Part shown: in pieces, positions 1,138 through 32,489 of the stretch | How positions within the stretch are numbered: the first letter of the stretch is position 1 | Layout of the letters: each line of letters begins with the position of its first letter | Assembly (NCBI GenBank): GCA_038890615.1 | Contig: JAWAFI010000001.1 | Coordinates: 1 to 34,510 of the forward strand | Length of the DNA stretch: 34,510 nt | Direction: 5' to 3' | DNA from: Candidatus Anstonellales archaeon | Lineage (GTDB): Archaea; Micrarchaeota; Micrarchaeia; Anstonellales; J096 | Made by a program: the position numbers and the translations under genes | Notes under the pieces: model-generated | Databases searched by the model: none | What the model was told of the DNA's origin: nothing | The model's input: the letters and a program-made list of their open reading frames with translations, nothing else

Positions 1138-1387
1138 TTTTATTGTAAAATTTAAAGACGGCTCAATAGGCCTATTTGATGCAAAAAGCGGAATAACAGC
1201 AAAAGATGCGAAGGAAAAAGCCGAAGCTCTGCAAAAATACATAAAAGAACAAAACAAAAAAGGTAAAAAACTAGTCGGCGGAATTATTGCACAGAAAAGA
1301 AAAGGAGATGAAACTCTTTACTTAAATGACAAAGATATTTATGAATATAATCAAAATTTAGGTGGTTGGAAGATATTAGAATTATAA
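1124..1387 (+). pseudogene. Orphan C-terminal PD-(D/E)xK nuclease fragment of a second Res-like gene
   Basis: FYVDFIVKFKDGSIGLFDAKSG...KAEALQKY resembles the FxPDFIV...(E/D)xK end of Res proteins. It lacks a helicase part and a convincing start, and overlaps the upstream stop in another frame. Confidence 0.6.
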
Positions 1388-5660: not shown

Positions 5661-6266
5661 ATGAAGATTGAGAAGAAGGAGAAAAGGGGCACAGGGGTAA
5701 GGGGAGGAATAGGGGAGGGGATGGCGCAGGAAGGGGAGGGGAGGAGGATAGGGGAGGAAGAGGTATTTAGGAGGGTCTTGAGGAGTGTTAGGAGCGGGGC
5801 AGAGGATAAGGAGGCATTTGAGGAGCTTAGGAGGATTAATAAGGAGAGGAGGGAAGAACATAAGGAGAGGGCTAAGGAGCTGGGGAAGGAGTTGTATGAA
5901 GAGTCTTGTAAAAAAGAATATTCTTTGGACAAGGTGGTAATGCTGGTGCTGGAAGGGGCTGATTTGGAGTTTAAGGATGATTATGGATGGACGGCGTTGA
6001 TGAGGGCTGCGTTGAATAGCAAGAAAGATGCTGTTAAGGTCATGCTTGAAAATGGAGCAAATCCTTTTTTGAAAAGTAATAAAGGGAGAAAAGCAATTGA
6101 TTTTGCTGGAGATGAAGAAACTAAAGGTCTTTTAAGAGAGTTTATTAGTAAAATGGATAAAAGGGTTAAGGAAAGGATGGAAAGGGAGGCTGAACTGAGG
6201 TTTTCGCTTATAGAATGCAATAAGGAAAAAGCAAAAGGTTTGATGAGGGAGGTGCTGAGTGGTTAA
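5661..6266 (+). CDS. Ankyrin-repeat family protein (member A)
   Basis: GADLEFKDDYGWTALMRAA...GANPF ankyrin motifs, the shared N-terminal RIGEEEVFRRVL..EDKEAFEELRRINKERR module and a C-terminal CNKEKA helix. TTAAAAAT lies about 25 nt upstream. Confidence 0.9.
   Translation: MKIEKKEKRGTGVRGGIGEGMAQEGEGRRIGEEEVFRRVLRSVRSGAEDKEAFEELRRINKERREEHKERAKELGKELYEESCKKEYSLDKVVMLVLEGADLEFKDDYGWTALMRAALNSKKDAVKVMLENGANPFLKSNKGRKAIDFAGDEETKGLLREFISKMDKRVKERMEREAELRFSLIECNKEKAKGLMREVLSG
5735..5857 (+). repeat. 123-bp inverted repeat, partner at 7922-8044
   Basis: Direct alignment of the two ankyrin genes' conserved module shows only two mismatches (gag/gat, gca/gct). Confidence 0.9.
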
Positions 6267-7383: not shown

Positions 7384-8139
7384 TTAGACTAGCATCTTCC
7401 TAACAATTATCCCAGCAGCTCTTTTATTGCAATCTTTTAACATATATTTTAAACCCATTAAAACTATTTCCATTTCTTCTTCTGTTAATTTTTCACCTTT
7501 TTCTGTTTTTTTAACCAATGCCTCTGCTTCATATATCCTTATAATCTCTTTTATTTCTTCATCTTTTGCCAAACCATAAGCTGTCCATCCTCCCCCGCCT
7601 ACAATAAAAGGATCAGCCCCTGCTTCCAAAAGCATTTCTACAATTTCTCTACTAGCCCTATTTTTAGCAGCATCCATCAAAGCCGTACTTTTCCATTTAT
7701 CCTTCACATCCAACTTCACCCCAACCTTCAAAAGTATCTTAACAATCTCCTTACTATTCCAGTAAACAGCACCCATCAAAGCCGTCCTTCCATCTTCAGC
7801 CTGCACATCCAAATTAGCCCCTTCCAAAATCAGCCTTAAAACCTTTTCAACACTATGAGGATAGCTTCTGCATTCCTGCATCAAATTCTCCCCTAAATAA
7901 TTAGCTTTTATCTCTCCAATCTCTTCCCTCCTCTCCTTATTAATCCTCCTAAGCTCCTCAAAAGCCTCCTTATCCTCTGCCCCGCTCCTAACACTCCTCA
8001 AGACCCTCCTAAATACCTCTTCATCCCCTATCCTCCTCCCCTCCACTTTCCCTTCCACACCAATCCCTTCCTTTCCTTCCTTGGTCGTTTCCTTGCTCGT
8101 AGAACCCTCTTTTTCCTTATCTTTCCCCTTTACCTCCAT
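7384..8139 (-). CDS. Ankyrin-repeat family protein (member B)
   Basis: GANLDVQAEDGRTALMGA, KDKWKSTALMDAA and GADPF repeats, the shared N-module and C-terminal CNKRAAGII. Confidence 0.9.
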   Translation of the reverse strand: MEVKGKDKEKEGSTSKETTKEGKEGIGVEGKVEGRRIGDEEVFRRVLRSVRSGAEDKEAFEELRRINKERREEIGEIKANYLGENLMQECRSYPHSVEKVLRLILEGANLDVQAEDGRTALMGAVYWNSKEIVKILLKVGVKLDVKDKWKSTALMDAAKNRASREIVEMLLEAGADPFIVGGGGWTAYGLAKDEEIKEIIRIYEAEALVKKTEKGEKLTEEEMEIVLMGLKYMLKDCNKRAAGIIVRKMLV

Positions 8140-8291: not shown

Positions 8292-10964
8292 CTACTTTCT
8301 TTCTCCGTATATCCTTAAGAATGCTTCATAGGTTTCAAGCATTCTAGGACTTATAGATGACCTTCTGCTCTTTATTATATTCTCTATTAACTGCGTGCTT
8401 ACTTCCATCCTTTGCCCCCTCAGCTCAGATCTAAGGGCCAGCATCTTTGCCTCCTGCGCTACAGCAGCTATGTCAGCCCCGCTAAATCCATCTGTGATTT
8501 CAGCCAGCCTATCAAAGTCAATTTCTCCCTTTATTTTCTCCAGGTTTATCCTGAATATCTGCTCCCTTGTCTTTTTGTCAGGCGGGGGGACATACACCAC
8601 CTTGTCAAACCTTCCTGGCCTTAGCAAGGCAGGGTCAAGTATCTCTGGCCTGTTTGTTGCGCCCATTACCAGAACCCCTTTGCTCTCCCTTATGCCATCC
8701 ATCTCAACCAGCAACTGGCTAACCATATCAAGCCCACCACCGCTCCTCACAGAAGCAATAGTGTCAATCTCATCTATGAATATTATTGCAGGGTGTGCCT
8801 CTCTTGCCCTTGCAAATATGTCTTTTATTTGTGCTAGCCCGTTCACCATGCCTCTCTCAACAAGCTCTGCACCGCTGGTATAGTAAAAAGCAACATCCAT
8901 CTCGCTTGTTGCTGCTTTCACTATAAGTGTTTTTCCGCATCCAGGAGGCCCAAAGAGCAATATTCCTTTGTAGGGCTTAATTCCGTACTCTTTCATTTTC
9001 TCTTCGTGCAGAAGAGGCAACTCTATTGCCTCTCTTATGCTATTCTTGACCTCTTCCATGCCAGCTACATCCTCCCATCTAACCTTCTTTACCTTTTTCT
9101 CCTCAACCTTTCCAATTCTCCTCTCAAACTCCTTCCCAAACTGCTCGTACTTTTCAAGCATTGTAAGTGTTGCTGACGGCTTTACAAGGGCAATTATTTT
9201 GAGCAAGTCCTCTGTTGTTATAGGCATGTCTTTACCTGTCTTTATTGCTCTTTCAGCCACCTCTTTTTTTGCTTCATCAACAACGAACTTTATGTCTGCT
9301 CCTGAAAAGCGCGGCGTTTTGCTACCAAGCAGCTCGTAGTTTATGTCCCCAATCAAAAGCCCCCTTAAATGCACCTCAAATATTTTTGCCCTTTCTTCTG
9401 CATTTGGCAACCTCATGTAGATTATCCTGTCAAACCTTCCTGGCCTTGTCAATGCAGGGTCTAATATGTCAGGCCTGTTTGTGGCTGCAACTACCACTAC
9501 TGGCTTTCCGCTCTTCACAAAGCCATCCATCTCCTGCAGGAATGCATTAAGAACATTTGCCATGTATGCGCTTGTGCTGTCCCCACCAGACTCCCTCTTC
9601 CTTCCTATTGTATCTATCTCATCAAAGAATATTATGGTTGGTGCGCTCTTCCTTGCCTCTTCAAAAAGCTCTGCTATGTTTTTCTCTGTTTCACCAACAT
9701 ACTTGCTTATTAGCTCTGCTGTGTTTACCTGTATGAAATTGTATTTTAGCTCTGCTGCAAGCGCCCTCATAAGCATTGTCTTACCTGTCCCAGGAGGCCC
9801 AAACAGGAGCACCCCTGTAGGAGGCTTTATCCCATAAAGCTCTGCCTTCTGCTTGTATTCAAGAGGAGTCATTATTGCCTTCCTAAGCTCTTCCTTTACA
9901 TCTTCATAACCTCCTATGTCATCAAGGCCCTTTTCCTTTATGCTATACTTCTGTATTCCTAACTTGCCAAAACTTCGCATCCTGTCCTCTGCCCTTAGCT
10001 CTCTTTCCCTAGATATGCTTACCCCAAAGTAGTTTAGAGCAAGGAGTATTAAGAATGGAACAACAGCATAGCCGAAAAGAAGGAAATTGAAGGAAGGGAT
10101 AAGCTTTGCCGCCCATAGCCCTGCATAAAGGAGAGGAATTGCCAAAAGCGCTAAGCTGGCAGTTGCCTCGCCAAATTTTTTTACATAAGTCGGAACTATC
10201 GCAATTGCAAACAGCACTGCTATCCATAGCGCTAGATGGAAAATGCCTATGTCCTTTATGAAGAAATTGACAATGTTTCCTGCCATGACCCCTATTGCAT
10301 TGTTCAGTTCAATTGCCCCTTGCAGTGAGAACTGCGCCCCTATCCTTCCTGTTACTTCACCCATTTTCTGTATATCTGGCGCTTTTCCAAATTGCAAAGC
10401 CCCTGAGTGCGTATAAGCATTAGGGTTAAAAGGTATGAGAAGATTGTTCTCAAGCTGCCACATACCTGAAAGCAGGATTATGAGAAAAACAGAAGGGGCA
10501 GCAATCAAGGCTGCCTTCTTTGAGCCGAAGTAAAGGGCACTGCCTGCAATAACCAGATAAGTCAACGGTGCAAGGAGTGAGAATGGAAACTGGGCAAATG
10601 CTGAGCAAATTATCATTGTCAGGACAATTATTATGTCCCAATGTGTAGAATACTTGAAAAATACCAAAGAGAGGGCAAGCAGGTAAATCCAACCCCATCC
10701 GCTGCTCTGGTAGATGAATGAAGGAGCTGCCAGTATGTACAAGGCAAGTGTTGCAATGAGAGCATTTTTGACTGCCAAAGCACCTACTACCAGCGCAAGG
10801 GCAACAACCAATATTAAGTGGTAATATGGCACTGCAGAATAAAGGAAAAGACCAGCAAGGAAAAACATAAAGAAAACGCCAAGCCATTCGCTTTTCTGAA
10901 CTGTTTTTATATAACTCCCTACTAACTGCCTCTGCATCTCAACCTGGGTTGTTGCATTGCCCAT
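8292..10964 (-). CDS. Membrane-anchored tandem AAA+ ATPase (CDC48/VAT-like D1-D2 fused to an N-terminal polytopic membrane domain)
   Basis: Two Walker A (GPPGTGKT, GPPGCGKT), two Walker B (IIFFDEID, IIFIDEID) and two SRH (TNRP..LDPAL.RPGRFD) motifs. The first ~315 aa are a series of hydrophobic helices. Confidence 0.9.
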   Translation of the reverse strand: MGNATTQVEMQRQLVGSYIKTVQKSEWLGVFFMFFLAGLFLYSAVPYYHLILVVALALVVGALAVKNALIATLALYILAAPSFIYQSSGWGWIYLLALSLVFFKYSTHWDIIIVLTMIICSAFAQFPFSLLAPLTYLVIAGSALYFGSKKAALIAAPSVFLIILLSGMWQLENNLLIPFNPNAYTHSGALQFGKAPDIQKMGEVTGRIGAQFSLQGAIELNNAIGVMAGNIVNFFIKDIGIFHLALWIAVLFAIAIVPTYVKKFGEATASLALLAIPLLYAGLWAAKLIPSFNFLLFGYAVVPFLILLALNYFGVSISRERELRAEDRMRSFGKLGIQKYSIKEKGLDDIGGYEDVKEELRKAIMTPLEYKQKAELYGIKPPTGVLLFGPPGTGKTMLMRALAAELKYNFIQVNTAELISKYVGETEKNIAELFEEARKSAPTIIFFDEIDTIGRKRESGGDSTSAYMANVLNAFLQEMDGFVKSGKPVVVVAATNRPDILDPALTRPGRFDRIIYMRLPNAEERAKIFEVHLRGLLIGDINYELLGSKTPRFSGADIKFVVDEAKKEVAERAIKTGKDMPITTEDLLKIIALVKPSATLTMLEKYEQFGKEFERRIGKVEEKKVKKVRWEDVAGMEEVKNSIREAIELPLLHEEKMKEYGIKPYKGILLFGPPGCGKTLIVKAATSEMDVAFYYTSGAELVERGMVNGLAQIKDIFARAREAHPAIIFIDEIDTIASVRSGGGLDMVSQLLVEMDGIRESKGVLVMGATNRPEILDPALLRPGRFDKVVYVPPPDKKTREQIFRINLEKIKGEIDFDRLAEITDGFSGADIAAVAQEAKMLALRSELRGQRMEVSTQLIENIIKSRRSSISPRMLETYEAFLRIYGERK

Positions 10965-12082: not shown

Positions 12083-12105
12083 GCTCTTCTTTATCTAATG
12101 GTTTT

Positions 12106-12750
12106 TTAATACTTAATCAAAAGCCTCTCAACCAGCCCTCCAGCTATTTTATTGCAATTATTTAATGCCATCTTCAGAGCAACTTTCATTAATTTTTCCT
12201 CCTTTTTATTCAGCCCTTCCTCTTTCTCCATTTTCCTTAATACTCTTTTTATACGTTTCATATAATTATCTAACATTTTCTTTATCTCTTCATTTCCTGC
12301 CAAATCATAAGCACTCTCTCCATCATTATTTACAATAAAAGGATCAGCCCCTGCCTTCAGAAGCATCTCAACAACCTCCTCATGCCTATTCTCAGCAGCA
12401 TACATCAGCGCAGTCTCTCCATCATTATCCTTCACATTCACATCCGCCCCTTCTAAAACCAGCTTTACAACCCTTTCTAAAGAAATCTTCTCCTTTTCCT
12501 TTTTGCATTCATTAATCAATTTCTTCCCAAGCCTTTCAGCCCTACTATTATCTTCCCCTTTCCTTTCCCTGTTAATCCTCTTAAGCTCCTCAAAAGCCTC
12601 CTTATCCTCCTTCCCGCTCCTAACAGCCTCCAAAACCCTCTTAATAACAACATCCTCCCCCATCCTTTCCTCCTTTAAACCACTCCTCTCAATTCCTTTA
12701 GAAGAGCCCTTCTTTTCCTTCCCTTTCTTATCCTCTTTTTCAATTGCCAC
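12106..12750 (-). CDS. Ankyrin-repeat family protein (member C)
   Basis: GADVNVKDNDGETALMYAA...GADPF, the shared leader and N-module and C-terminal CNKIAGGL. GTG start. Confidence 0.9.
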   Translation of the reverse strand: MAIEKEDKKGKEKKGSSKGIERSGLKEERMGEDVVIKRVLEAVRSGKEDKEAFEELKRINRERKGEDNSRAERLGKKLINECKKEKEKISLERVVKLVLEGADVNVKDNDGETALMYAAENRHEEVVEMLLKAGADPFIVNNDGESAYDLAGNEEIKKMLDNYMKRIKRVLRKMEKEEGLNKKEEKLMKVALKMALNNCNKIAGGLVERLLIKY

Positions 12751-12789
12751 AATATTCTTCTCTACCCTTCCTTTTTAACCCTTGCTCAC

Positions 12790-13713
12790 TCAGCCTAGCA
12801 TCTTCTTAGCAATTATCCCAGCAGCTCTCTTATCACAACCTTCTAAAGCATACTCTAAAACCCTCCTTCTCATTTTCTCATTGCTTACTTCTTCTCCTTT
12901 TTCTATTTTCTTAAACATATATACCCTTATAATCTCTTTTATCTCTTCATTTCTTGCCAAATCATAAGCACTCTTTCCATCATTATCTACAATAAAAGGA
13001 TCAGCCCCTGCTTTAGCCAGAACCTCCACAACCTTCTTATGCCCATTCTCAGCAGCCCTCATCAGCGCCGTCCATCTAAAATAATTATAATTATCCTGCA
13101 AATCCAAATTAGCACCTGCCTTTATCAGCATCTTAACAACACCCTCATTCCCATTGTCAGCAGCCCTCATCAGCGCAGTCTCTCCATAATTATTCTGCAA
13201 ATCCAAATTAGCACCTGCCTTTATCAGCATCTTAACAACACCCTCATTCCCTTCAAAAGCAGCCCACACCAGCGCCGTCCATCCACCATTACCCTGCAAA
13301 TCCAAATTAGCACCTGCCTTTATCAGCATCTTAACAAACTCCTCATGCCCCCTCCAAGCAGCCCTCATCAGCGCCGTCCATCCACCATTACCCTGCAAAT
13401 CCAAATTAGCACCTTCCAAAATAAGCTTTACAACCCTTTCAACTGAAACTGTTTTCTCTTTTTCACACTCTTTTATCAGCTCTTTTCCAATCATATTGCT
13501 CCTTCCCTCTCCAATCTCTTCCCTCTTCTCCTTGTTAATCCTCCTAAGCTCCTCAAAAGCCTCTTCATCTTCTTTCCTACTCCTAACAGCCTCCAAAACC
13601 CTCTTAATAACAACATCCTCCCCCATCCTTTCCTCCTTTAAACCACTCCTCTCAATTCCTTTAGAAGAGCCCTTCTTTTCCTTCCCTTTCTTATCCTCTT
13701 TTTCAATTGCCAT
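12790..13713 (-). CDS. Ankyrin-repeat family protein (member D, four near-identical repeats)
   Basis: Four GANLDLQ...TAL..AA..G....VK.L units, the same leader as member C and C-terminal CDKRAAGII. Confidence 0.92.
   Translation of the reverse strand: MAIEKEDKKGKEKKGSSKGIERSGLKEERMGEDVVIKRVLEAVRSRKEDEEAFEELRRINKEKREEIGEGRSNMIGKELIKECEKEKTVSVERVVKLILEGANLDLQGNGGWTALMRAAWRGHEEFVKMLIKAGANLDLQGNGGWTALVWAAFEGNEGVVKMLIKAGANLDLQNNYGETALMRAADNGNEGVVKMLIKAGANLDLQDNYNYFRWTALMRAAENGHKKVVEVLAKAGADPFIVDNDGKSAYDLARNEEIKEIIRVYMFKKIEKGEEVSNEKMRRRVLEYALEGCDKRAAGIIAKKMLG
13030..13415 (-). repeat. 99-bp tandem ankyrin-coding repeats
   Basis: ctgcaaatccaaattagcacc recurs at 13096, 13195, 13294 and 13393. Confidence 0.95.
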
Positions 13714-13762
13714 AATATTCTTCTCTACCCTTTCTTTTTAATCCTTGCTCACTTAGCCTAGC
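13714..13762 (-). repeat. Ankyrin cassette spacer (gene end, stop, TATA-like box); other copies at 12751-12799 and 7344-7393
   Basis: Minus-strand consensus GCTAG(G/T)CT(A/G)AGTGAGCAAGG(G/A)TTAAAA...GGGTAG...ATATT(G/A)TGGCAATTG occurs three times. Confidence 0.88.
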
Positions 13763-13976
13763 TTAAAATGAAAAGAATGAATTCATGCGCAGAAAGCATT
13801 GGTAGCGAGGAGAAGAGGGCAAAGCCAAGCAGGAAAAGGATTGCGCCCAATAGCTGGCTCCATAGGAGAACAGGGAAAGGCCCAATAGAGCAGATAGCCC
13901 TTGCTGCTATGAAATCAGCAGTGCCCCAGCTGAGCATTGAAGCAGCCCCAAAAAGGACTCCTGCAGGAATGTCCAT
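13758..13976 (-). pseudogene. Truncated EamA/DMT-family transporter
   Basis: MDIPAGVLFGAASMLSWGTADF...IGPFPVLLWSQLLG matches the first helices of EamA. It stops after about 72 aa exactly where the ankyrin spacer begins, whereas full EamA proteins have about 10 TM. Confidence 0.7.
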
Positions 13977-14029
13977 TTGTGATAGCGAAAGGAGCAATAA
14001 TTTAAACATTTCTTTTCTAAAAAAAAGAT

Positions 14030-14578
14030 ATGGAAAGCTTTGTGCCTGAAAAGGTCTTCTTTGTCAAGGGAGTAGGGGTACACAAAGACAGGCTCGCTTC
14101 TTTTGAGCTGGCCCTAAGGGATGCAGGAATAGAGAAATTCAACCTAGTGTATGTGTCTAGCATATTCCCGCCTAAGTGCAAGATAATACCGAAGTCAGAA
14201 GGGCTGAAGCACCTGCGGCCAGGGCAGATAATATACTGCGTGATGGCAAGGAATGAAACGAATGAGCCAAACAGGCTCATATCAGCAGCAGTAGGGCTTG
14301 CAATACCAAAGAACAAAAGCTTCTACGGATACCTTTCAGAACACCATGCATACGGCCAAAAGGGGGAAAGCGCAGGGGAATATGCAGAGGACTTGGCTGC
14401 AACTATGCTTGCCTCTACATTGGGAATTCCATTTGACCCAAACAAGGCTTGGGACGAAAGGAAGCAGGAGTACAAGGCTAGCGGCCATATATTCAAGACA
14501 ACGCATGTCTGCCAATCAAGTGAGGGCAACAAGGACGGGCTTTGGACAAGTGTTGTATCAGCAGCAGTTTTCCTTTGA
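14030..14578 (+). CDS. pdaD: Pyruvoyl-dependent arginine decarboxylase
   Basis: [25 protein letters not shown] (Ser-Ser autocleavage site), YGYLSEHH and [14 protein letters not shown]. Confidence 0.92.
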
Positions 14579-16147
14579 CTAACTCACCCTCTTGTATATT
14601 TTCTCTCCGGGCTTTATCGCGTTTGCGCTTGAGCCAAAGATAAAGATATCTCCATCTATCTTGCCCTTGAGCTCATAGAAAGAGTCGCCAGGCCTTACAA
14701 CACCAGCCTCTTCCCACCTGCCCTTTAATTTTATTATCAGCATTTCACCCTCCTCTATCTGGGTTAGCTTCTTGTTGTTCCAGCGCAATATATCATTGAT
14801 ACTAACCCCATAATTCAAAGCAATGCTGTATAAAGTATGGCCTCTTTTTACACGGTGGCTTATGTAAGTTGTGTCCTGCGAAGCATCGTAATGGACAAAT
14901 CCTTTTCCAATAACTCCTGTATTATCTCTCTGAGGCGTTATTTCTTTATCTTTCTTAGGAATTATGGGATCCTTGACGCTATGCTTAGGCATCTTTTGTT
15001 CAGTAAGCTTTTTAGAAGGGATTATCAGGTTAAGAACACCTGTTTTGGAGGCAGCTTCTATCTGATGGCTATTTAAAGAAATTAAATAGGCAAGGTCAAG
15101 CCCCCTACGCTTTGCCTCCTTTTCCAGCTCATTGTAGGCATCCTTTTTGAAATCAAAATACTGTGGAATTATAAGCACATCTCCTTCCTTAAGTTTCCTT
15201 GAAGAATATTTTGAGAAGCCATTAAGGGCCATCAAATCATCCATGTCAACATTGTGCTTCCTTGCTATGGAATAGAAATTATCACCTTTCTTGACCCTAT
15301 ATGTCCTGTGCTGCCTCTTTATGGTAATAATAGAGAAATCAGCTGGCTGGCGCGAGAAAAAATCGCTGTAAGCATGCATGCTATTTTTCTTGAAAAAATT
15401 TTCATCTGAAAGAGCCATTATAGTGCCCAAAAACTTTGGGGGGTAATAAGTGTTCTCTATGAAAGAAGAAGTTTTGCAGCCACCCTTGGCTTTTTTCAGT
15501 ATGTAATTAGCAAAAAAATCTTTGTATACTTTGGCACCCTCAATCCTCCCTTCACCACCATTGTAGACAACTGTAGCAAGAAGCGGGTCGGTGCCAAACC
15601 TTGAGAGCAGATAGCTGAAATAAGCGCCTGCTGCCTCTGCACCAATTATAGGGTCAAACCTGTACTTTGGATCCTTGAACCCTGCCCTTGCGAAATCATC
15701 CCAAGTTTCAGGAAGGAATTGGAATAAGCCAGCAGCACCTCTGCTGGAAACTGAGAATTTCCTTCCATCTGACTCAGGTATGAATATGAAAACAAGGTCA
15801 AGCACATTGAAGCCATATGCTGCTATTTTTAGAACCTCATCAATGGTGCTATCACTTACGCCCTGCTTCCTTGCCTGCTCCCTGAAGCCCTTTTCAAAAG
15901 CGACCTTTAGATAAGGCATCAATAAATAAAAATCCTTGATTATGCCTTTTAAGTTGTAGCTTTCATTTTCCATATAAGAGGCCCAATATGAGCCTGCCTT
16001 AACTAAGAAATCCTCCCAGCTCCTTGAGGATTTTATAAGCTCGATAAGCTTTTTGTAGTCGTATTTTTGGAATGGCTCATCTATATTTTTTTTGCCTTTC
16101 CCTACTATGTCAAACTTAGAAAGAGAGGCTAATTCACTGCTTTTCAT
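14579..16147 (-). CDS. Lytic transglycosylase (SLT/MltD-like) with LysM domains
   Basis: Catalytic ES (IPESDG), SSRGAAGLFQFLPETW and YNGGEG. LysM repeats YRVKKGDNFYSIARKH and HRVKRGHTLYSIALNYGV, plus a degenerate VVRPGDS repeat. Confidence 0.88.
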   Translation of the reverse strand: MKSSELASLSKFDIVGKGKKNIDEPFQKYDYKKLIELIKSSRSWEDFLVKAGSYWASYMENESYNLKGIIKDFYLLMPYLKVAFEKGFREQARKQGVSDSTIDEVLKIAAYGFNVLDLVFIFIPESDGRKFSVSSRGAAGLFQFLPETWDDFARAGFKDPKYRFDPIIGAEAAGAYFSYLLSRFGTDPLLATVVYNGGEGRIEGAKVYKDFFANYILKKAKGGCKTSSFIENTYYPPKFLGTIMALSDENFFKKNSMHAYSDFFSRQPADFSIITIKRQHRTYRVKKGDNFYSIARKHNVDMDDLMALNGFSKYSSRKLKEGDVLIIPQYFDFKKDAYNELEKEAKRRGLDLAYLISLNSHQIEAASKTGVLNLIIPSKKLTEQKMPKHSVKDPIIPKKDKEITPQRDNTGVIGKGFVHYDASQDTTYISHRVKRGHTLYSIALNYGVSINDILRWNNKKLTQIEEGEMLIIKLKGRWEEAGVVRPGDSFYELKGKIDGDIFIFGSSANAIKPGEKIYKRVS

Positions 16148-16180
16148 AAATAGTCATGTGCAGAACTATTTAAAAACAAT

Positions 16181-16714
16181 TCACTCGTAGGCCTCAAAAG
16201 AGAGGTCGTTGAAGGAATACAATGGCCCTTCCTGCACTAGCACCTGCCTTGCATCCTCTGAGCGGAGCACGCTCCATGTGTCTGGGCTAACAAGGAACTC
16301 TTCAGGGGAGGTTATGTAAACAAAGATTGAGTTCTTTTTGGTTACATATATGCGCGCCTCGCATCCGTTGCTCCTTAAGAAAGAAAGGAAGAATATTGCC
16401 TTATCCATAACATCTGCGCCTTTGACTTCAATTATGTCAGGGAAATCAAGCCAGAACGAAACTGGGGGGTGGATGGTGCGGAACTTTGAAAAATAAGGTA
16501 TGCCCAAGGAGATTGCCTTTTCGCAGCTTCCCCCAACCTCAAGCTCGGAGTTTATGGAGGCGATTACAGGATGGAAAGGCCTAACAAGGCTTCTCAGCTC
16601 AGCAACGCTCTTCTTTTCCTTCTCCTCAATAACATCCCTGTAGCGGTTCATTATCTTGCTGAGGAATCTGTGCAGCATCTCCTCCTTCTCTGTTTCGCTT
16701 CTCTCATTGTCCAT
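16181..16714 (-). CDS. Transglutaminase-like fold protein, apparently catalytically degenerate
   Basis: FW..PDII..KGADVMDKAIFFLSFLRSNG resembles the W..P.E....GDCxDxAxL..SLLR..G motif, with the Cys replaced. Confidence 0.55.
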   Translation of the reverse strand: MDNERSETEKEEMLHRFLSKIMNRYRDVIEEKEKKSVAELRSLVRPFHPVIASINSELEVGGSCEKAISLGIPYFSKFRTIHPPVSFWLDFPDIIEVKGADVMDKAIFFLSFLRSNGCEARIYVTKKNSIFVYITSPEEFLVSPDTWSVLRSEDARQVLVQEGPLYSFNDLSFEAYE

Positions 16715-16826
16715 GGGTAAAATACAGGGAAGGGGTTTAAAAACATTGGGGAAAATGGGATAAAGGCGGAATAGGCCATATTTGCGCTCTTACTGCTCGG
16801 CTGAGATAGGGCAAGGCGGAGGAAGG

Positions 16827-16836
16827 TTTATAAATA
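16827..16836 (+). promoter_or_regulatory. TATA box of the ribosomal protein operon
   Basis: TTTATAAATA preceded by purine-rich GGAAGG (BRE-like), about 40 nt upstream of uL3. Confidence 0.65.
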
Positions 16837-16876
16837 TAACTAAATAAAAAACTTAACTTGTAATTGGTGCTTATAT

Positions 16877-17788
16877 ATGACAGATATAAGGAAACCAGCA
16901 GCGATGGGATTAGCATTCAGGCCAAGGAGCAGGGCAAAGAAGCAGCTTCCTAGGGCAACCACTTGGAAAGAAGGGGAGGAAGCAAGGATAGAAGGCTTCA
17001 TAGGATACAAGGCAGGCATGTGCCAAGTGGCTTATCCAACTACTGAAAGGCTCTACAAAGGAAGGGAAATAGTAAGCGCAGCAACAGTGCTTGAAGTGCC
17101 GCCTATGGTCCTTTATGGGATCAGGGGATACAAAGGAGGCAAGGCAGTAGGAGATGAGCTATGCACAGATGAAGCAATACTCAAAAAAATAGGTATAAAA
17201 AAGAGGAAAGCAGCCAAGATTGACGAGAGCAAGATCGACAATGTAAGGGCCCTTGTCTATGCAGAGCCATCACTGACTGGGATAGGCAAAAAGCATATAG
17301 AAAGGGCTGAGTTTGGCGTTGGAGGAAAGGACCTTAAGGAAAAGATAAATTTCTTAAGGAGCATGCTGGGGAAGCAGTTCAATGCCTCAGATGTTTTCAA
17401 GAAAGGGGAATACATAGACATAATTGGGGTTACGAAAGGCAAAGGAATGCAGGGAACAGTCAAGAGGCACGGCACTGCGGTGCAGAGAAGGAAAGCAACT
17501 GGCAAGAGAAGGCATGTAGGCACATTGGGCCAATGGCACCCTGCTTATGTTTTTTACACTATCCCAAGGGCAGGGCAAATGGGATACCATAAGCGCACAG
17601 AGCTCAACAAGGTAGTGTGCGAGATAGGAAAGCCGGGAAAGAAGGAGTATAAGCACTACGGAAAGATAAAAAATGATGTAATTGTTGTATTGGGCTCAGT
17701 TATGGGGCCAGTGAAGAGGGCAGTGAAAATGAGGAGGGCGCTCAGGAAGGACAAATCGCAAATAGAAGTGAAGGAGCTTATCTGGTGA
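16877..17788 (+). CDS. rpl3: 50S ribosomal protein uL3
   Basis: GYKAGM, TKGKGMQG.VKR and RAGQMGYHKRTELNK. Confidence 0.97.
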   Translation: MTDIRKPAAMGLAFRPRSRAKKQLPRATTWKEGEEARIEGFIGYKAGMCQVAYPTTERLYKGREIVSAATVLEVPPMVLYGIRGYKGGKAVGDELCTDEAILKKIGIKKRKAAKIDESKIDNVRALVYAEPSLTGIGKKHIERAEFGVGGKDLKEKINFLRSMLGKQFNASDVFKKGEYIDIIGVTKGKGMQGTVKRHGTAVQRRKATGKRRHVGTLGQWHPAYVFYTIPRAGQMGYHKRTELNKVVCEIGKPGKKEYKHYGKIKNDVIVVLGSVMGPVKRAVKMRRALRKDKSQIEVKELIW

Positions 17789-17792
17789 AATT

Positions 17793-18554
17793 ATGAAAGT
17801 TGATGTTTATTCTGTTGATGGGAAAAAGAAAGGGGAAATAGAAAGCAGGATATTCGATGAGGACATAAGGGAAGACTTGATAAGGAGGGCTGCCCTAAGC
17901 GATTATAGCAAGGAGTACCAGCCAAAGGGAGCTTACAGGTACGCAGGCATGCAGACAAGCGCTTACTACAGGGGCGAAAAGGATGTTTACAGGAGCATGA
18001 AGAACATAGGCGGAGCAAAGCTCCCACGGGAAATAAGGCCAGGGGGAAGGTATGGGAGGGTTAGAAGGGTTCCCTTTGCAGTAGGGGGGAGAAGGGCCCA
18101 CCCGCCAAAGCCGCAAAAAATAATAGTTGAGAATATCAATAAAAAGGAGTACATAAAGGCCCTAAGAAGCGCTGTTGCGGCTACAGCAAGCAGCGAGGCA
18201 GTGAAGAAGAGGGGGCATATATTTGAAAAAGTGCCAATAGTGGTTGATGGGCTTGAGGACCTTAAGAAAGCAAAGGAAGTTATAGCACTCCTTGAAAAGC
18301 TTGGTTTGATGAGTGATGTTGAAAGGAGCAAAGAAAGGGCTAAGAAGAGGGTTGGCAGGAAAGGTGGCACTAAAAGGCCAAAAAGCGTGCTTTTCGTTGT
18401 TTCAGGGGATTGGAAGGCAGGAGCAAACCTGAGCGGAAGCGATGTAGTGGTTGCAGGGAAAGCAAAGGTAAAGGATTTTGCGCCCGGAGGTGTTGCAGGG
18501 CGCCTTGCGGTGTATAGCTCAAAGGCTCTATCTGAACTGGAGGCGAGGGCATGA
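17793..18554 (+). CDS. rpl4: 50S ribosomal protein uL4
   Basis: AVGGRRAHPPK, INKKE and APGGVAGRL, in operon order. Confidence 0.97.
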   Translation: MKVDVYSVDGKKKGEIESRIFDEDIREDLIRRAALSDYSKEYQPKGAYRYAGMQTSAYYRGEKDVYRSMKNIGGAKLPREIRPGGRYGRVRRVPFAVGGRRAHPPKPQKIIVENINKKEYIKALRSAVAATASSEAVKKRGHIFEKVPIVVDGLEDLKKAKEVIALLEKLGLMSDVERSKERAKKRVGRKGGTKRPKSVLFVVSGDWKAGANLSGSDVVVAGKAKVKDFAPGGVAGRLAVYSSKALSELEARA

Positions 18555-18799
18555 TAATAAAGAAAGCAGTAAAAACAGAAAAATTCATAAGCAAGGTTGA
18601 TTTTGAGGGCAAGATAACCCTTGAGGTTGACCTTAAGGCTACAAAAAAAGAAATAATTGAAGAATTCGAGAAAGTGAGCGGGGAGAAAGTGAAAAAGATT
18701 AACATCTACATAACACCTGCGGGCAAAAAGAGGGCAGTGATAAAGCTGGCAGACCCTGCAAAGGCAGAGGATGTTGCCCTAAAGTTCAAATTAGTGTGA
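18551..18799 (+). CDS. rpl23: 50S ribosomal protein uL23
   Basis: TEK...V..KATK, KKRAVIKL, in operon order. Confidence 0.93.
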   Translation: MIIKKAVKTEKFISKVDFEGKITLEVDLKATKKEIIEEFEKVSGEKVKKINIYITPAGKKRAVIKLADPAKAEDVALKFKLV

Positions 18800-18803
18800 T
18801 AGC

Positions 18804-19538
18804 ATGACAAAGAGAATAAGGTCGCAAAGGAGGGGGCGCGGAAGCAAGAGGTTCAGGAGCCCAGGATACAGGTTTGTTGCAGACATAAAGCTGCCGGAAA
18901 AAGAAGGAAAGGCGCAGGTGATTGATATAATAGATGATCCGGGTAGGAACGCACCGTTGGTTGAGGTGATGTTTGAGGACTTCACAAGAGGCTATATGAT
19001 AGCCCCAGAAGGAGCTGCAGTAGGGGATGTTTTTGAGATAGGAGGCAATGCAAGGCCTGCAGTAGGCAATGTGCTAAAGCTAAAAGACATACCAGACAGC
19101 TTTTATGTTTATAACATAGAGAAGGTAAGAGGGGATGGGGGTAAGATGGTAAGGAGCGCAGGAAGTTATGCAATAATACTCTCTAAAGAAGGGAATTATG
19201 TGTATGTCAAAATGCCTACGAAGAAAATCCTGAAAATAGATGGAGAATGCAGGGCTGCCATAGGCGTGGTGGCAGGAGGGGGGGTGCTAGAAGCTCCGCT
19301 TGTGAAAGCAGGGAATTCATACTTCAAGTTCAAGGCAAAGGGCAACAGGAGATGGCCAGAAGTAAGAGGGGTTAAGATGAGCGCCTACAACCACCCGCAC
19401 GGAGGAAAGCAGCACCATGTTGGGAAGCCAACTACAGTATCAAGGCATGCACCCCCAGGGTCAAAGGTAGGCCATATTGCAGCAAGGAGGACCGGCAGAA
19501 GAAAAGCAAGGATTCAGGAGGAGAGTGAAGAAGAATGA
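18804..19538 (+). CDS. rpl2: 50S ribosomal protein uL2
   Basis: QRRGRG, DPGRNAP, HPHGG and KVGHIAARRTG. Confidence 0.97.
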   Translation: MTKRIRSQRRGRGSKRFRSPGYRFVADIKLPEKEGKAQVIDIIDDPGRNAPLVEVMFEDFTRGYMIAPEGAAVGDVFEIGGNARPAVGNVLKLKDIPDSFYVYNIEKVRGDGGKMVRSAGSYAIILSKEGNYVYVKMPTKKILKIDGECRAAIGVVAGGGVLEAPLVKAGNSYFKFKAKGNRRWPEVRGVKMSAYNHPHGGKQHHVGKPTTVSRHAPPGSKVGHIAARRTGRRKARIQEESEEE

Positions 19539-19933
19539 AGGTTGAGAAGTTCAGGGGGAAAACAGAGGAGGAAATAAAGAACATTTCTATAGATGAATTT
19601 CTAAATATGGTAAGTGCAGGGGCAAGGAGGAACCTGAAGAGGATGAACCTAAACTTTAGGTACAAGAAGCTCGTTGACAAGGTAAGGAAGCTGAAGAGCA
19701 AAGGAGGGATAAAGAAGCCGATAAAGACCCACCTTAGGGATGCAGTGATTATCCCGGAGTGGCTTGGGATAAAGTTCCTTGTGCACAACGGCAAGGATTG
19801 GAAGCCAGTAGAGATAACAATGAACAAGCTTGGCAGGAGGCTTGGCGATTTTTCCCATACAACAGGCAAGGTCATCCATTCAGGCCCAGGAGTAGGGGCA
19901 ACTAGGGGAAGCAAGTTTGTGCCGCTGAAGTGA
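19535..19933 (+). CDS. rps19: 30S ribosomal protein uS19
   Basis: IKTHLRD, VHNGK and PGVGATRGSKFVPLK. Confidence 0.97.
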   Translation: MKVEKFRGKTEEEIKNISIDEFLNMVSAGARRNLKRMNLNFRYKKLVDKVRKLKSKGGIKKPIKTHLRDAVIIPEWLGIKFLVHNGKDWKPVEITMNKLGRRLGDFSHTTGKVIHSGPGVGATRGSKFVPLK

Positions 19934-20373
19934 TGGAAATGTATAACTCATTTGACTCAAAAACGCATGGGAAGGCCCGCCTTGAGGATGTTGATGTGTC
20001 CTTCAAGGATGCAGTTGCAGTGTGCAGGAGCATAAAGGGTATGGAAACCGAGAAAGCAATTGAATACTTAGAGGCAGTCAAGGAAATGAAAAAAGCGGTA
20101 AAGTACACAAAGTACAACAAAAAGATGGCACACAGAAAAGAGCTGGGCGGGCAGAAAGGCAGGTATCCAAGAAAAGCAGGAAGGATAGTTCTTAAAGTGC
20201 TGAAGGACGCAATTGCAAATGCTGAGAGCAAAGGGATAACTGGGGAGCTTGAGATTGTGCACGCTTCTGCAAACAAAAAGAACGTATTCAGGAGGATACA
20301 GCCAAAAGGGAGGCAAATATACTCAAACTATGAGACAGCCAGGATTGAGATTGTTGTGAGGGAGAAAAAATGA
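19933..20373 (+). CDS. rpl22: 50S ribosomal protein uL22
   Basis: VSFK, GRYPRKA and ANAESKG. The ATG at 19933 overlaps the rps19 stop. Confidence 0.95.
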   Translation: MEMYNSFDSKTHGKARLEDVDVSFKDAVAVCRSIKGMETEKAIEYLEAVKEMKKAVKYTKYNKKMAHRKELGGQKGRYPRKAGRIVLKVLKDAIANAESKGITGELEIVHASANKKNVFRRIQPKGRQIYSNYETARIEIVVREKK

Positions 20374-21035
20374 CAATAAAGAATATTGAAAACAAATTTA
20401 TAGCAGAGCCATTGCTTAAGGCAAGGATGAGGGAATTCCTAGACAAGAAGCTGGAAAGGGCAGGTATATCAAACATAGAGATACAGAGAACCCCGCTGTT
20501 CACAAAAATAATGATAGAGTGCCTCAACCCGGGCTATGTTATAGGGGCAAAAGGAAGGAGAAGCAATGAGCTAACTGATGAGATAAAGAAGCTATTTGAC
20601 ATAGAAAATCCACAGATATCAGTAATTGAGGTGCAGAATCCGTCAATAGAGCCACGCCTCGTAGGTAAGAAAGCAGCAAAGTACATTGAGATGGGGAAGA
20701 GGCTAAGGCCAGTAATGCAGAGGCTCCTCAAGTCAATGCTTGATGCAGGGGCTTTAGGTGGGGAAATAGTTGCAAGCGGAAAGCTAGGAGGCAAAGGGGC
20801 AAAATCAAGGGCTGTAAAAGTTAGCGCTGGCTATCTCCCAAAGGCAGGGCAGGTTACTGAAAGCGTCAAGGAAGCGCTTGTTGAGGCTCACACGAAAGCA
20901 GGCATAATTGGGATAAGGGTAAGGGTTGTACCGCCTGGCACAAAATTCCCTGACAAGGAAGTGAAGAAGATTGACCTCCCAAAAACAATTGCGAAAAGCA
21001 AGGAGAACAGCGAAAAGGAAGGGGGTGAACTTTGA
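20370..21035 (+). CDS. rps3: 30S ribosomal protein uS3
   Basis: PGYVIGAKG KH motif, GALGGEIVASGKL and GIIGIRVRV. Confidence 0.96.
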   Translation: MTIKNIENKFIAEPLLKARMREFLDKKLERAGISNIEIQRTPLFTKIMIECLNPGYVIGAKGRRSNELTDEIKKLFDIENPQISVIEVQNPSIEPRLVGKKAAKYIEMGKRLRPVMQRLLKSMLDAGALGGEIVASGKLGGKGAKSRAVKVSAGYLPKAGQVTESVKEALVEAHTKAGIIGIRVRVVPPGTKFPDKEVKKIDLPKTIAKSKENSEKEGGEL

Positions 21036-21274
21036 TGGCTGTTGTAAAAGCATGGGAATTGAGGCAGATGGGAAAGGAAGAGCTACTGAAGAAGATGGAA
21101 GAATATGGAAGGGAGCTAATGCTTACTGAAGCAAATCCGGGCAAAATAAGGGAGCTTAAGAAAGCCATTGCAAGGATAAAGACTGAGTTAAGGGAAAGGG
21201 AATTGGGGATTATCAGGAAGAAGGGGCCAAAAAGGAAAGCTGAAGAAAAGCCAAAGGAAAATTCTGCTCAATAA
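21035..21274 (+). CDS. rpl29: 50S ribosomal protein uL29
   Basis: ELRQM...NPGKIRELKKAIARIKT, following uS3. Confidence 0.92.
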   Translation: MAVVKAWELRQMGKEELLKKMEEYGRELMLTEANPGKIRELKKAIARIKTELRERELGIIRKKGPKRKAEEKPKENSAQ

Positions 21275-21280
21275 TTCTTC

Positions 21281-22240
21281 TTATTTTTGCTTATTTTTCT
21301 TCGTGCCCTTCTCCTTTTTGAAAATAAGGGGCTCAAGCAGAAGAAGTATATGGTAGAATGCCTCTTTTGGGGAAACCCTGACAAATGCGCCTGCTGCATT
21401 CGCATGCCCCCCTCCATAGCCGTTGCACCTCTTTGCAAGAGAGGCCATCAGCGAGTTCAGGGCTATGCTTTTTATTCCAGAGGAGCGGGCGCTTACCTTT
21501 GTGCCTCCCTCTGATTCCTCAGCGACAAATACAAGGTCCGATACATTGCTAAGCAAAGCTGCAACAGATGAAGGGCTAACCTTGGTTGTTGAGAAAGCAA
21601 TTACTTTATCGCTTATGAATACCCAGCTTGCTGATTGCAGTGCTTCTATTATCAATGGCCTTTCTTCTGGGGAAACATCTGAAGAAATGAAGCGCAGGAC
21701 ATCTTTCATGGTGCGCCCTGACTTGCTGAGCATGGACGCAAACTTAAGGAGTGTTTCAGATGAAGCTACTTTAAAAAGAACTGTGTCGCTTGCAATCCCA
21801 ACTGAAAGAGCAAATAGGGCATTCTTGCTTAAGGAAGGTCCAAGAAGGTCGTATATTAACTCAGAGCACGAGGAGTAAGATGGGCGGATTATTGAGTGCC
21901 TCGCTTTTATGGGAAAAAGGTCTTTTTGGTGGTGGTCAATTACTAAGAACGCACTCTCTGCTCCTGCTAGGTTCTTGCTGTGGGTGTCAACAACTACCAT
22001 GGCAGGGCCATCTGGGGGATTGCCATCGCTGTACGGAACTTTAAGGGATTCAAAAAGGAAATGGGCATCCCTCCTTGGCTTGTCCAAGTAAATCCTGGAA
22101 TGGGGCAAAAGAGAATGCAGGGCTATGAGAGAGGCAGCAGAATCAAGATCAGCCCTTGAATGTGAAACAAGAGATACCTTATGCTTAGAGAGATAGGAAA
22201 GGATTTTAGTTAGTGCCGCCCTTTCCTTGCTCAGCGCCAT
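21281..22240 (-). CDS. DHH/DHHA1 phosphoesterase (NrnA-like)
   Basis: H..ADLDS, VVDT, IDHH, GIASDT and GGGHANAAG. Last gene of the exosome cluster. Confidence 0.9.
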   Translation of the reverse strand: MALSKERAALTKILSYLSKHKVSLVSHSRADLDSAASLIALHSLLPHSRIYLDKPRRDAHFLFESLKVPYSDGNPPDGPAMVVVDTHSKNLAGAESAFLVIDHHQKDLFPIKARHSIIRPSYSSCSELIYDLLGPSLSKNALFALSVGIASDTVLFKVASSETLLKFASMLSKSGRTMKDVLRFISSDVSPEERPLIIEALQSASWVFISDKVIAFSTTKVSPSSVAALLSNVSDLVFVAEESEGGTKVSARSSGIKSIALNSLMASLAKRCNGYGGGHANAAGAFVRVSPKEAFYHILLLLEPLIFKKEKGTKKNKQK

Positions 22241-26371: not shown

Positions 26372-27373
26372 GTGAGTTCTATTGTGGAAAAAAGGAAGGT
26401 GAAAAAAAGGAAAATAAGGGCAAGGGAGGAGGAAGCAGAGGTTTTAGTTGAGGAAAGGAAGGGCAGCATTGTTGAAAGGATAGCAGAAGCATTGAGAGAA
26501 GGTAAGGAAGATCGTGAACTATTTGACAGGTTTAGGGAGATAAACAGAAAAAGATTTAATAAATCAGATGAGCTTCAGCAGCTTTTGTATGAAAGCGAGG
26601 GATCGCTGGAAGGCCCAATCATGCTCCTGCTCAAAGGCGCAGACCCGAATGGGTGGGGGGCAAAAAAGAGGTTCACAAAAGCATGCCTTTTCAATGAAAA
26701 AGAAGTAGCATTACTGCTTGTTGAGGCAGGGATGAAGCTGAACGAGCTTGACAATTCAGGGCTCACTCCGCTTATAAAATGCATAAACGAAGCAATAAAT
26801 TCATCCATAGCTAAATTATTGCTTGAAAGAGGCGCTGATCCTAACAAGAAATCAGCAGATGGATGGAGCCCCTTTATGTGGGCTTTTTCAGTTGAGGCAT
26901 TTAGGATAGCAAAGATGCTTGAAAAAAATGGGGCTGACAAAGAGTACCTTCGTGATAACATAGATAAGGCAAACATGTATGGCTTTACAATGTTGACCTA
27001 CGCAATCCTTAATAGAGGGAGAAGCAAAAGGGTAATAGAGAAGCTGCTCGAAGAAGGGGCGGGGATAAATGTGCAAGACATGAATGGGAAGACAGCATTG
27101 ATGACTGCTGCTGAAGAAGGAAAGAACAGGTTGGTGGAACTGCTGCTTGAGAAAGGTGCAAACCCCTTCTGCAAGAATGAAAAAGGGAGGGATGCTTTCC
27201 TTCTTGCAAAAAAAGTGAGCACTGGCAGGATTATTAGGGAGCACATAAGCAAACTTAAAGCAGATGATAGGAAGAGAATGGAAAATGAGGCAGAGCTTAT
27301 GTTCAGCCTTCTAACATGCAACTCTGAAAAAGCAGCCAAAGCAATAGAAGCGTACCTAAATAGGAACAATTAA
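26372..27373 (+). CDS. Ankyrin-repeat family protein (member E, divergent)
   Basis: About six ankyrin repeats (GLTPL, GWSPF, GFTML, GKTALM), a divergent N-module (RIAEALREGKEDRELFDRFREINRKR) and C-terminal EAELMFSLLTCNSEKA. The start is probably the GTG at 26384. Confidence 0.9.
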   Translation: MSSIVEKRKVKKRKIRAREEEAEVLVEERKGSIVERIAEALREGKEDRELFDRFREINRKRFNKSDELQQLLYESEGSLEGPIMLLLKGADPNGWGAKKRFTKACLFNEKEVALLLVEAGMKLNELDNSGLTPLIKCINEAINSSIAKLLLERGADPNKKSADGWSPFMWAFSVEAFRIAKMLEKNGADKEYLRDNIDKANMYGFTMLTYAILNRGRSKRVIEKLLEEGAGINVQDMNGKTALMTAAEEGKNRLVELLLEKGANPFCKNEKGRDAFLLAKKVSTGRIIREHISKLKADDRKRMENEAELMFSLLTCNSEKAAKAIEAYLNRNN

Positions 27374-32378: not shown

Positions 32379-32406
32379 TGCGTAGCATGATAATAAATAT
32401 AAAGAG

Positions 32407-32489
32407 CGCTAGGGGTGGGATTCGAACCCACGCTCCCTTTCGGGAAACAGCTTAGCAGGCTGCCGCCCTAGCCACTAGGCGACCCCAGC
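32407..32489 (-). tRNA. tRNA-Ser(GCT)
   Basis: Acceptor GCTGGGG/CCCTAGC, anticodon arm GCAGC-CT-GCT-AA-GCTGT, variable arm TTCCC-GAAA-GGGAG, GTTCGAATC and discriminator G. TTTAAA lies upstream. Confidence 0.95.

Follow-up and report, generated by a model that had tools for sequence, protein, structure and literature searches.

An MltD-like lytic transglycosylase with LysM modules and no detectable export signal in a Micrarchaeota genome

Lytic murein transglycosylases are known from several lineages of small-genome DPANN archaea. In 2018 such an enzyme was described in three Micrarchaeota genomes, with bacteria suggested as its target and the Sec-signal recognition particle (SRP) pathway as its means of export (PMC5864196), and similar enzymes have been given similar interpretations in other DPANN groups, including Woesearchaeota and Pacearchaeota (fam00969; PMC8204110) and Woesearchaeota carrying glycoside hydrolase family 23 (GH23) proteins (PMC9723730; see also PMC10936187). 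Modular peptidoglycan hydrolases have been counted in 175 of 3,706 archaeal genomes; 67 of 210 (32%) carry a known signal peptide, and two archaeal enzymes were shown to kill bacteria (PMC12352652, which also cites a GH25 case in Aciduliprofundum). A bacterial host for any DPANN archaeon has been called an open question (PMC8204110). Here we describe a 34,510-nucleotide stretch of DNA (the window) from a Candidatus Anstonellales archaeon (assembly GCA_038890615.1, contig JAWAFI010000001.1, positions 1 to 34,510), in which an open reading frame (ORF) at 14579-16147 on the reverse strand encodes a predicted lytic transglycosylase resembling the bacterial enzyme MltD and carrying LysM modules.

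The gene is of an already known kind, the wall-lytic enzymes of DPANN archaea, and the surprise implied by the initial annotation was overstated. Such enzymes are in print for Micrarchaeota, and a scan of 401 genomes from the phylum gives SLT matches in 101 at E<=1e-3 and in 52 at E<=1e-9, the stricter count being given because many weak matches span only model positions 3-45 and are doubtful. Like the published DPANN transglycosylases (PMC5864196, PMC8204110, PMC9723730), it combines an SLT or GH23 domain with a small DPANN genome and can be read as a tool against bacterial walls or hosts; those enzymes are described as large, extracellular or Sec-exported, whereas this is a signal-less SLT plus LysM protein of 522 amino acids (aa) from a rare subfamily. 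It also falls within the published definition of a modular archaeal hydrolase (SLT in the S10 catalytic list, LysM as binding domain, archaeal context; PMC12352652). With members of that group such as Woldo and Danwoldo it shares the joining of a catalytic to a wall-binding domain, a patchy spread and, as in most of them, the absence of a known signal, although the enzymes tested there are Tat-exported M23 and glucosaminidase proteins of haloarchaea. What is new is the detail, namely the spread of export signals within the subfamily and a LysM apparently nested in another. From sequence and a predicted structure, we propose, with confidence that is about evenly balanced, that this is an active family 1 MltD-like enzyme, long resident in one Micrarchaeota family, which is used at contact against the wall of an attached bacterial host or prey.

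Domain architecture and comparison with MltD

The ORF starts with ATG, has no internal stops and encodes a basic protein (pI about 9.4). Pfam recognises an SLT domain (aa 118-209) with 56 bits, the cut-off being 21.3, which identifies a family 1 lytic transglycosylase (GH23) domain, and LysM scores 90 bits over two stretches (window 15164-15301 and 14729-14857). In a whole-genome search this was the sole SLT gene and the sole LysM gene found in the genome to which the window belongs (G000; 845,764 bases in seven contigs, 94% complete and 0.72% contaminated). The parts of the gene, in window coordinates, are as follows.

14579-16147 (-): whole gene for the MltD-like lytic transglycosylase with LysM modules, without signal peptide or lipobox
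15830-16075 (-): helices at the N-terminus, aa 25-106, corresponding to the additional helical region that widens the cleft in family 1D (DSSP on the AF2 model; VIA alignment from model residue 43 = residue 88 of P. aeruginosa MltD, PaMltD; PMC11327851)
15521-15796 (-): SLT core, aa 118-209, with E125-S126, S134, G140-L-F-Q143, T148, Y176 and Y195-N196 (Pfam, alignments)
15773-15775 (-): codon of the predicted catalytic Glu125 (= PaMltD E144; alignment to 8RHE)
15356-15520 (-): aa 210-264, helices forming the C-terminal part of the catalytic domain and containing E231 and Y235 (= PaMltD E245 and Y249)
15317-15337 (-): strand at aa 271-277, putative first strand of a split, degenerate LysM resembling MltD LysM1 (DSSP in both models)
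15164-15301 (-): aa 283-328, canonical LysM A, which seems to interrupt the degenerate LysM (Pfam)
15017-15151 (-): aa 333-377, helices and last strand of the putative split LysM-like unit (the VIA alignment with 8RHE extends as far as model residue 381 = chain residue 331; not detected by profile)
14909-15001 (-): Lys/Pro-rich low-confidence linker, aa 383-413 (pLDDT < 50 over most of it)
14729-14857 (-): canonical LysM B, aa 431-473 (profile matches)
14585-14719 (-): shortened LysM-like unit, aa 477-521 (tandem-LysM models, predicted structure)

The best solved relative by sequence is PaMltD (E 2e-11), and a profile of the archaeal subfamily searched against the PDB likewise ranks MltD first (E 6e-18; next hit 4e-7). 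The predicted model (mean pLDDT 77) has MltD as its top match in Foldseek (E 2e-9) and in VIA (Z 15.2, rmsd 4.0, 228 aligned residues, model 43-381 on 8RHE chain 88-331), with MltF as the runner-up within 1 Z unit (Z 14.3); as 62 of the 65 rows in its input alignment are bacterial MltD-like proteins, the model leans toward MltD and the fold match is partly circular.

The catalytic and substrate-binding residues named for PaMltD include E144, S145, S153, G159, Q162, T167, Y195, Y214, N215, E245 and Y249 (PMC11327851). All eleven are identical in the archaeal protein and stand in the same order (E125, S126, S134, G140, Q143, T148, Y176, Y195, N196, E231 and Y235). They include E125-S126, which aligns with E144-S145 as the catalytic motif of family 1, and the substrate-binding Thr, Tyr, Tyr-Asn and Glu/Tyr positions (T148, Y176, Y195-N196, E231 and Y235). 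This active site is kept across homologues that are merely 23-33% identical overall. The SLT motifs that the initial annotation had called intact (catalytic Glu in ES, GLFQF and YNGG) are present as E125-S126, G140-L-F-Q-F144 and Y195-N-G-G (Y195-G198), and its MltD-type assignment is borne out.

The likeness to MltD of family 1D (8RHE, 8RHF and 8RHI; PMC11327851) extends beyond the SLT core to an N-terminal helical extension (helices at aa 25-106, as seen in the partly circular model), a putative cryptic LysM beside the catalytic domain, again by model, and further mobile LysM domains on a flexible linker. The differences are equally distinct. The window protein has no membrane anchor, signal peptide or lipidated Cys, a hydrophobic segment being absent, as is any Cys ahead of residue 224; Pro precedes the catalytic Glu, the Trp of motif II is Phe, and PaMltD Arg154 is Ser; a canonical LysM seemingly lies inside the cryptic one, and a shortened LysM stands at the C-terminus. 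The archaeal host, moreover, has no peptidoglycan of its own to remodel, and the protein is not nested with support among the sampled bacterial MltDs. The NCBIfam MltD model scores 87.8 bits against a cut-off of 508. Together these comparisons suggest an enzyme that would function like MltD yet is not the membrane-bound MltD.

As for the LysM modules, two clear copies and one degenerate copy had been annotated. Pfam supports the two clear ones, whereas the degenerate units are, by model, probably two rather than one: aa 477-521, and a split unit made of aa 271-277 plus 333-377. Tandem-LysM models align over aa 423-521 (TM 0.54-0.59), which supports the short C-terminal unit, and LysM B plus this unit is duplicated in the homologues from genome G002 and metagenome contig L171. 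Around LysM A, DSSP gives in both models a flanking strand (271-277) on one side and helices plus a strand (333-377) on the other, and when the model is aligned with the crystal form made of catalytic domain and LysM1, the match stops at model residue 381; from the models we infer that a canonical LysM has been inserted into the cryptic LysM1 of MltD. The nested arrangement was not detected by sequence profile, which landed on the canonical LysM without a significant score. In the relatives G050 and G343b, a LysM lies inside the catalytic domain instead.

The subfamily and its export signals

The subfamily is present in three of the 19 genomes of the same family (G000, G002 and G010), and a fourth copy, with its 5' end cut, lies on L171. 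These four proteins form a supported clade (99/94 in one tree, 100/99 in another). A second Micrarchaeota clade comprises five proteins from G343, G050 and G081. A search with the subfamily profile added seven further proteins, and in the phylum to which a Candidatus Yonathbacteria record belongs the same profile matched seven of 201 genomes, that of the record included; we take this phylum to be Patescibacteria. A wider clade uniting DPANN and candidate phyla radiation (CPR) proteins is unstable, having support of 100/97 in one tree and 98/95 in another (bootstrap unsettled, two best CPR hits left out), 86/46 in a third, and not being recovered at 80 in a fourth once those two hits were added. 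No bacterial donor can be named; the protein is not nested with support among the sampled MltD or Slt-type proteins, most bacterial rows of which carry no taxon. Several origins of the Micrarchaeota SLTs are not claimed here: a free tree needs two changes, but a single clade of all those sampled is not rejected (p-AU 0.305).

The initial annotation saw no obvious signal peptide, and this holds. No uncharged hydrophobic stretch precedes the catalytic domain, and no Sec, twin-arginine translocation (Tat) or lipoprotein signal is detectable in the window protein. A missed N-terminus or frameshifted signal peptide was rejected: the reading frame is closed by a stop three codons ahead of the ATG, 33 nt separate the ATG from the end of the upstream gene, and the other frames give no hydrophobic reading. 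The hydrophobic aa 105-123 were rejected as a membrane anchor, as these residues overlap the catalytic helix.

Export signals vary across the subfamily. Among its 18 members with a complete N-terminus, eight carry a twin-arginine-like motif and hydrophobic stretch, six a plain hydrophobic stretch and four neither. The four signal-less members (G000, G002, G343a and G050) each have an in-frame stop close upstream and C-terminal LysMs, and they are found in both Micrarchaeota subclades (G000 and G002 in one, G343a and G050 in the other). Against a clean signal-less group stands P0253, one of three members of the G002 cluster, which is called with a 38-aa hydrophobic extension; in G002 DNA the stretch corresponding to that extension contains an in-frame stop and lies antisense to the beginning of a transketolase-like gene that points the other way, and the extension may be a calling artefact. 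The family appears to be at least partly surface-directed, because the relative in G010 retains an N-terminal hydrophobic segment. More widely, among the 43 best-matching Micrarchaeota SLT proteins of the 401-genome scan, 30 have a hydrophobic segment ahead of the catalytic domain.

SLT proteins whose N-termini carry the twin-arginine-like motif and a hydrophobic stretch are those at L048:5566-7539, L114:5365-6555, L349, L350 and L026:1072-2448, and P0228, P0230, P0232 and P0233. The pattern occurs in none of 62 canonical MltD-like proteins. Sec signal anchors, too, can be built from a basic stretch and a hydrophobic helix. No TatC was detected in the four twin-arginine carrier genomes tested (G010, G406, G457 and G482; a further four twin-arginine members have no genome), or in G000, G002, G003, G006, G343, G050 or G081, all of these genomes being incomplete. 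Within the phylum, TatC was seen in just two of 201 genomes, at L261 (G073) and L262 (G175), which belong to the same family. Some Patescibacteria have TatA/TatC (PMC9166423). Judged from sequence, the new detail is an apparent export puzzle, with members that have no signal and others whose signals are twin-arginine-like, in genomes in which no TatC was detected. This puzzle across the subfamily, rather than the gene type, is what could matter.

Among the closest known systems are the wall hydrolases of Patescibacteria that are of VirB1 type or associated with type IV secretion systems (PMC12102498), many homologues of which carry LysM or M23 domains. Both cases involve a wall-opening enzyme, a small epibiont and a reduced VirB4 system, and the genome of the window encodes three type IV pilus-type ATPases and a VirB4/TraG-like ATPase (G000:C1:228482-229918). 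They differ in that the window gene is unlinked to the VirB4-like gene and that the archaeon has no wall of its own, so that the target would be the wall of a partner. We consider it a long shot that the subfamily, as one common to DPANN archaea and Patescibacteria (CPR), is delivered at contact through a reduced VirB4-type channel rather than the Sec or Tat machinery of its owner, with the signal-less members (four of 18) placed at the host wall and the twin-arginine members (eight of 18) entering the host cytoplasm and leaving by the host Tat system. A literature search found no statement of such host-assisted export, most subscription journals being outside its coverage. If delivery of this kind were true, some Micrarchaeota would be parasites of bacteria, and a sequence-level marker and a bench test would follow.

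Proposed function and alternative readings

Archaea make no true bacterial peptidoglycan, and MltD-type enzymes cleave the MurNAc-GlcNAc bond. From residue conservation and fold, action on bacterial peptidoglycan is the best inference for this protein, and the substrate would be foreign because the archaeon has no such wall. In use at contact with a bacterium, the LysM modules would hold a glycan strand and feed it to the cleft, where Glu125 would cleave the MurNAc-GlcNAc bond without water to give 1,6-anhydro ends, a chemistry taken from the family; the wall would be thinned locally at the contact site. An attached bacterium as the target, and a non-Sec route of export, are put forward weakly; the VirB4-like channel would be one candidate for the route, with vesicles or lysis as others.

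The distribution of wall-lytic genes in the phylum, which besides its SLT genomes holds SLT+M23 and SLT+amidase fusions, counts in favour of contact use as a broad kit against walls. The genome of the window has GGGP synthase and HMG-CoA reductase, and because of this these two archaeal lipid-synthesis steps need no archaeal host.

Several observations weigh on the other side. The main one is that the cultured Micrarchaeota named in PMC8784108 grow on archaea, namely Thermoplasmatales and Sulfolobales. With three carriers among 19 family genomes, the gene is not a core need, and G000, G002 and G010 have no gene neighbourhood in common; no conserved operon or empty site was found among the family genomes. 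Searches of G000 turned up neither partner wall enzymes (M23, Amidase_3 and NlpC/P60 each 0) nor a phage-sheath injection system, and the gene stands about 212 kb from the VirB4-like gene, outside the co-location expected of a VirB1. To the lack of an export signal must be added two departures from canonical MltD: Pro124, directly before the catalytic Glu, occurs in none of the 62 bacterial rows, and Phe142 turns motif II, G-L-W-Q in MltD, into G-L-F-Q, all 62 rows having the Trp. Most subfamily members share the Pro.

For the question of bacterial hosts, this MltD-like enzyme of a hot-spring Micrarchaeon, well conserved and native to its genome, offers a convenient soluble test protein, and it may be a moderately heat-tolerant wall-lytic enzyme.

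The alternative that survives best, though we hold it to be unlikely, keeps the chemistry and gives up the intimate bacterial host: the enzyme would be a weapon released by lysis or in vesicles, or an opener of dead bacterial biomass, and the true host would be archaeal, as are the cultured ones (PMC8784108). The soluble and basic form of the protein and its LysM targeting would befit a diffusible enzyme, and the patchy spread of the gene (three of 19 family genomes; LysM in seven of 401 genomes of the phylum) agrees with an arms race of the kind described for archaeal hydrolases (PMC12352652). On the other side, the hydrophobic segments of 30 of the 43 Micrarchaeota SLT proteins fit tethered or exported contact enzymes as well. 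Scavenging, which the initial annotation had listed among the possible roles, finds no support: sugar products cannot enter the classical recycling route, because AnmK is over its cut-off in none of 20 genomes and no GH3 (NagZ-like) gene was found in G000. Of five genomes searched for GH3, only G002, source of the closest homologue, has such a gene, at L260:1495-2583 (NagZ-like by family only); none was found in G000, G010, G343 or G050.

Repurposing for another GlcNAc polymer, such as chitin or the surface glycans of an archaeal host, or a mainly lectin-like role in adhesion, is distinctly improbable in our estimate. In its favour, chitin can be a LysM ligand (PMC12352652), one GH23 member is a chitinase (cited in PMC10455584), and Patescibacteria living as parasites of methanogens express proteins that contain peptidoglycan-binding domains (PMC10936435). 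The full residue set of a lytic transglycosylase is kept, however, and the subfamily profile, which at E<=1 matched 27 PDB sequences, hit neither a chitinase nor a goose-type lysozyme; in VIA, goose-type lysozyme reaches Z 9.4 against 15.2 for MltD. In the GH23 chitinase and goose-type lysozyme, a second acidic residue activates water. PaMltD was itself crystallised with chitotetraose in the cleft beside bulgecin A (PMC11327851).

We also doubt that the protein is a relic whose export signal was lost in the lineage, leaving it cytoplasmic and drifting, or inactive. Its long terminal branch (1.07-1.57 changes per column), the unusual Pro124 and Phe142, and the hydrophobic segment kept by a family relative would fit such decay, and the P0253 call means that the homologue in the G002 cluster may not be signal-less in every strain. 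Set against these are 522 codons without a stop or frameshift, the retention of all catalytic residues, codon use in the native range (17th percentile of 526 genes), and the presence in both Micrarchaeota subclades of signal-less versions that each have a close upstream stop and C-terminal LysMs.

Assembly, genomic context and neighbouring features

An assembly or binning artefact, in which a bacterial mltD was joined to an archaeal contig, is highly improbable and is largely refuted: the sole run containing most of the stretch (X1, a hot springs metagenome) may be the source sample, and Logan contigs are interrupted at about 12100-13700 by the ankyrin paralogues just upstream, yet one 20,378-nt X1 contig of uniform depth (14.4) with 0 differences covers window 13712-22000, the nearest relatives are by far those in Micrarchaeota genomes rather than bacteria (E 2e-54; 4.7e-66), and contamination of the genome is 0.72%. 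The X1 contig spans the adjoining arginine decarboxylase gene, the transglycosylase gene and the ribosomal operon (uL3-uL29); given its possible origin, X1 tests the assembly and not independent occurrence elsewhere. The coverage check thus shows a contig that is not chimeric as far as testable. The one RNA run examined yielded nothing from the stretch, which speaks neither for nor against expression.

Other genes of the window pass archaeal NCBIfam cut-offs (aEF-2, uS7, uS12, uL2, uL22, uS3, Rrp42 and SBDS), and uL3 and uL4 score best on archaeal models, though under their cut-offs. The archaeal origin claimed for the contig is borne out by the uniform-depth contig that these ribosomal genes share with the transglycosylase. 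The third-position GC content (GC3) of the gene, 0.43 against a median of 0.48, is in the native range and slightly AT-shifted, and the gene is native to the Micrarchaeota genome. A viral origin was rejected, as viral_contigs contained no close relative (best E 2e-11, SLT core only).

Just upstream, at 16181-16714 (-), is a 177-aa gene with no Pfam family, the homologues of which occur in three of 18 other family genomes in a different context. Elsewhere in the phylum, M23+SLT and amidase+SLT (weak CHAP) fusions were seen at L024:745-1869 (G171), L032:13-1857 (G326) and L155-L157. Separate M23 genes occur in G010, G006 and G343, and tandem SLT gene pairs in several Micrarchaeota genomes, including L137:4783-7655 (G343) and L012/L013 (G033, G025).

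Five ankyrin-repeat ORFs lie in the window, at 5661-6266 (+), 7384-8139 (-), 12106-12750 (-), 12790-13713 (-) and 26372-27373 (+), and 29 of the 830 ORFs in G000 match them (blastp, E<1e-5). Most have a highly charged N-terminus, a conserved helical segment and no signal peptide. Such an expansion is unusual for an 846-kb archaeon and could represent a family of secreted effectors.

At the contig end, window 1-1387 is a low-GC island (24-26% GC) with ORFs at 61-1137 and 1100-1387, the larger having no Pfam match over cut-off; the two may correspond to C-terminal parts of a type III restriction-type nuclease, and the island is probably foreign DNA. The gene at 8292-10964 (-) encodes an 890-aa double-AAA ATPase that scores 513 bits against a CDC48 cut-off of 803 and has a long N-terminal part with no Pfam family. 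The genes at 28356-32378 (-) and 32567-34486 (-), which have a tRNA-Ser gene (32406-32489) between them, encode large proteins of surface type whose repeats are Ig-like, CARDB and carboxypeptidase-regulatory; both are candidate adhesins.

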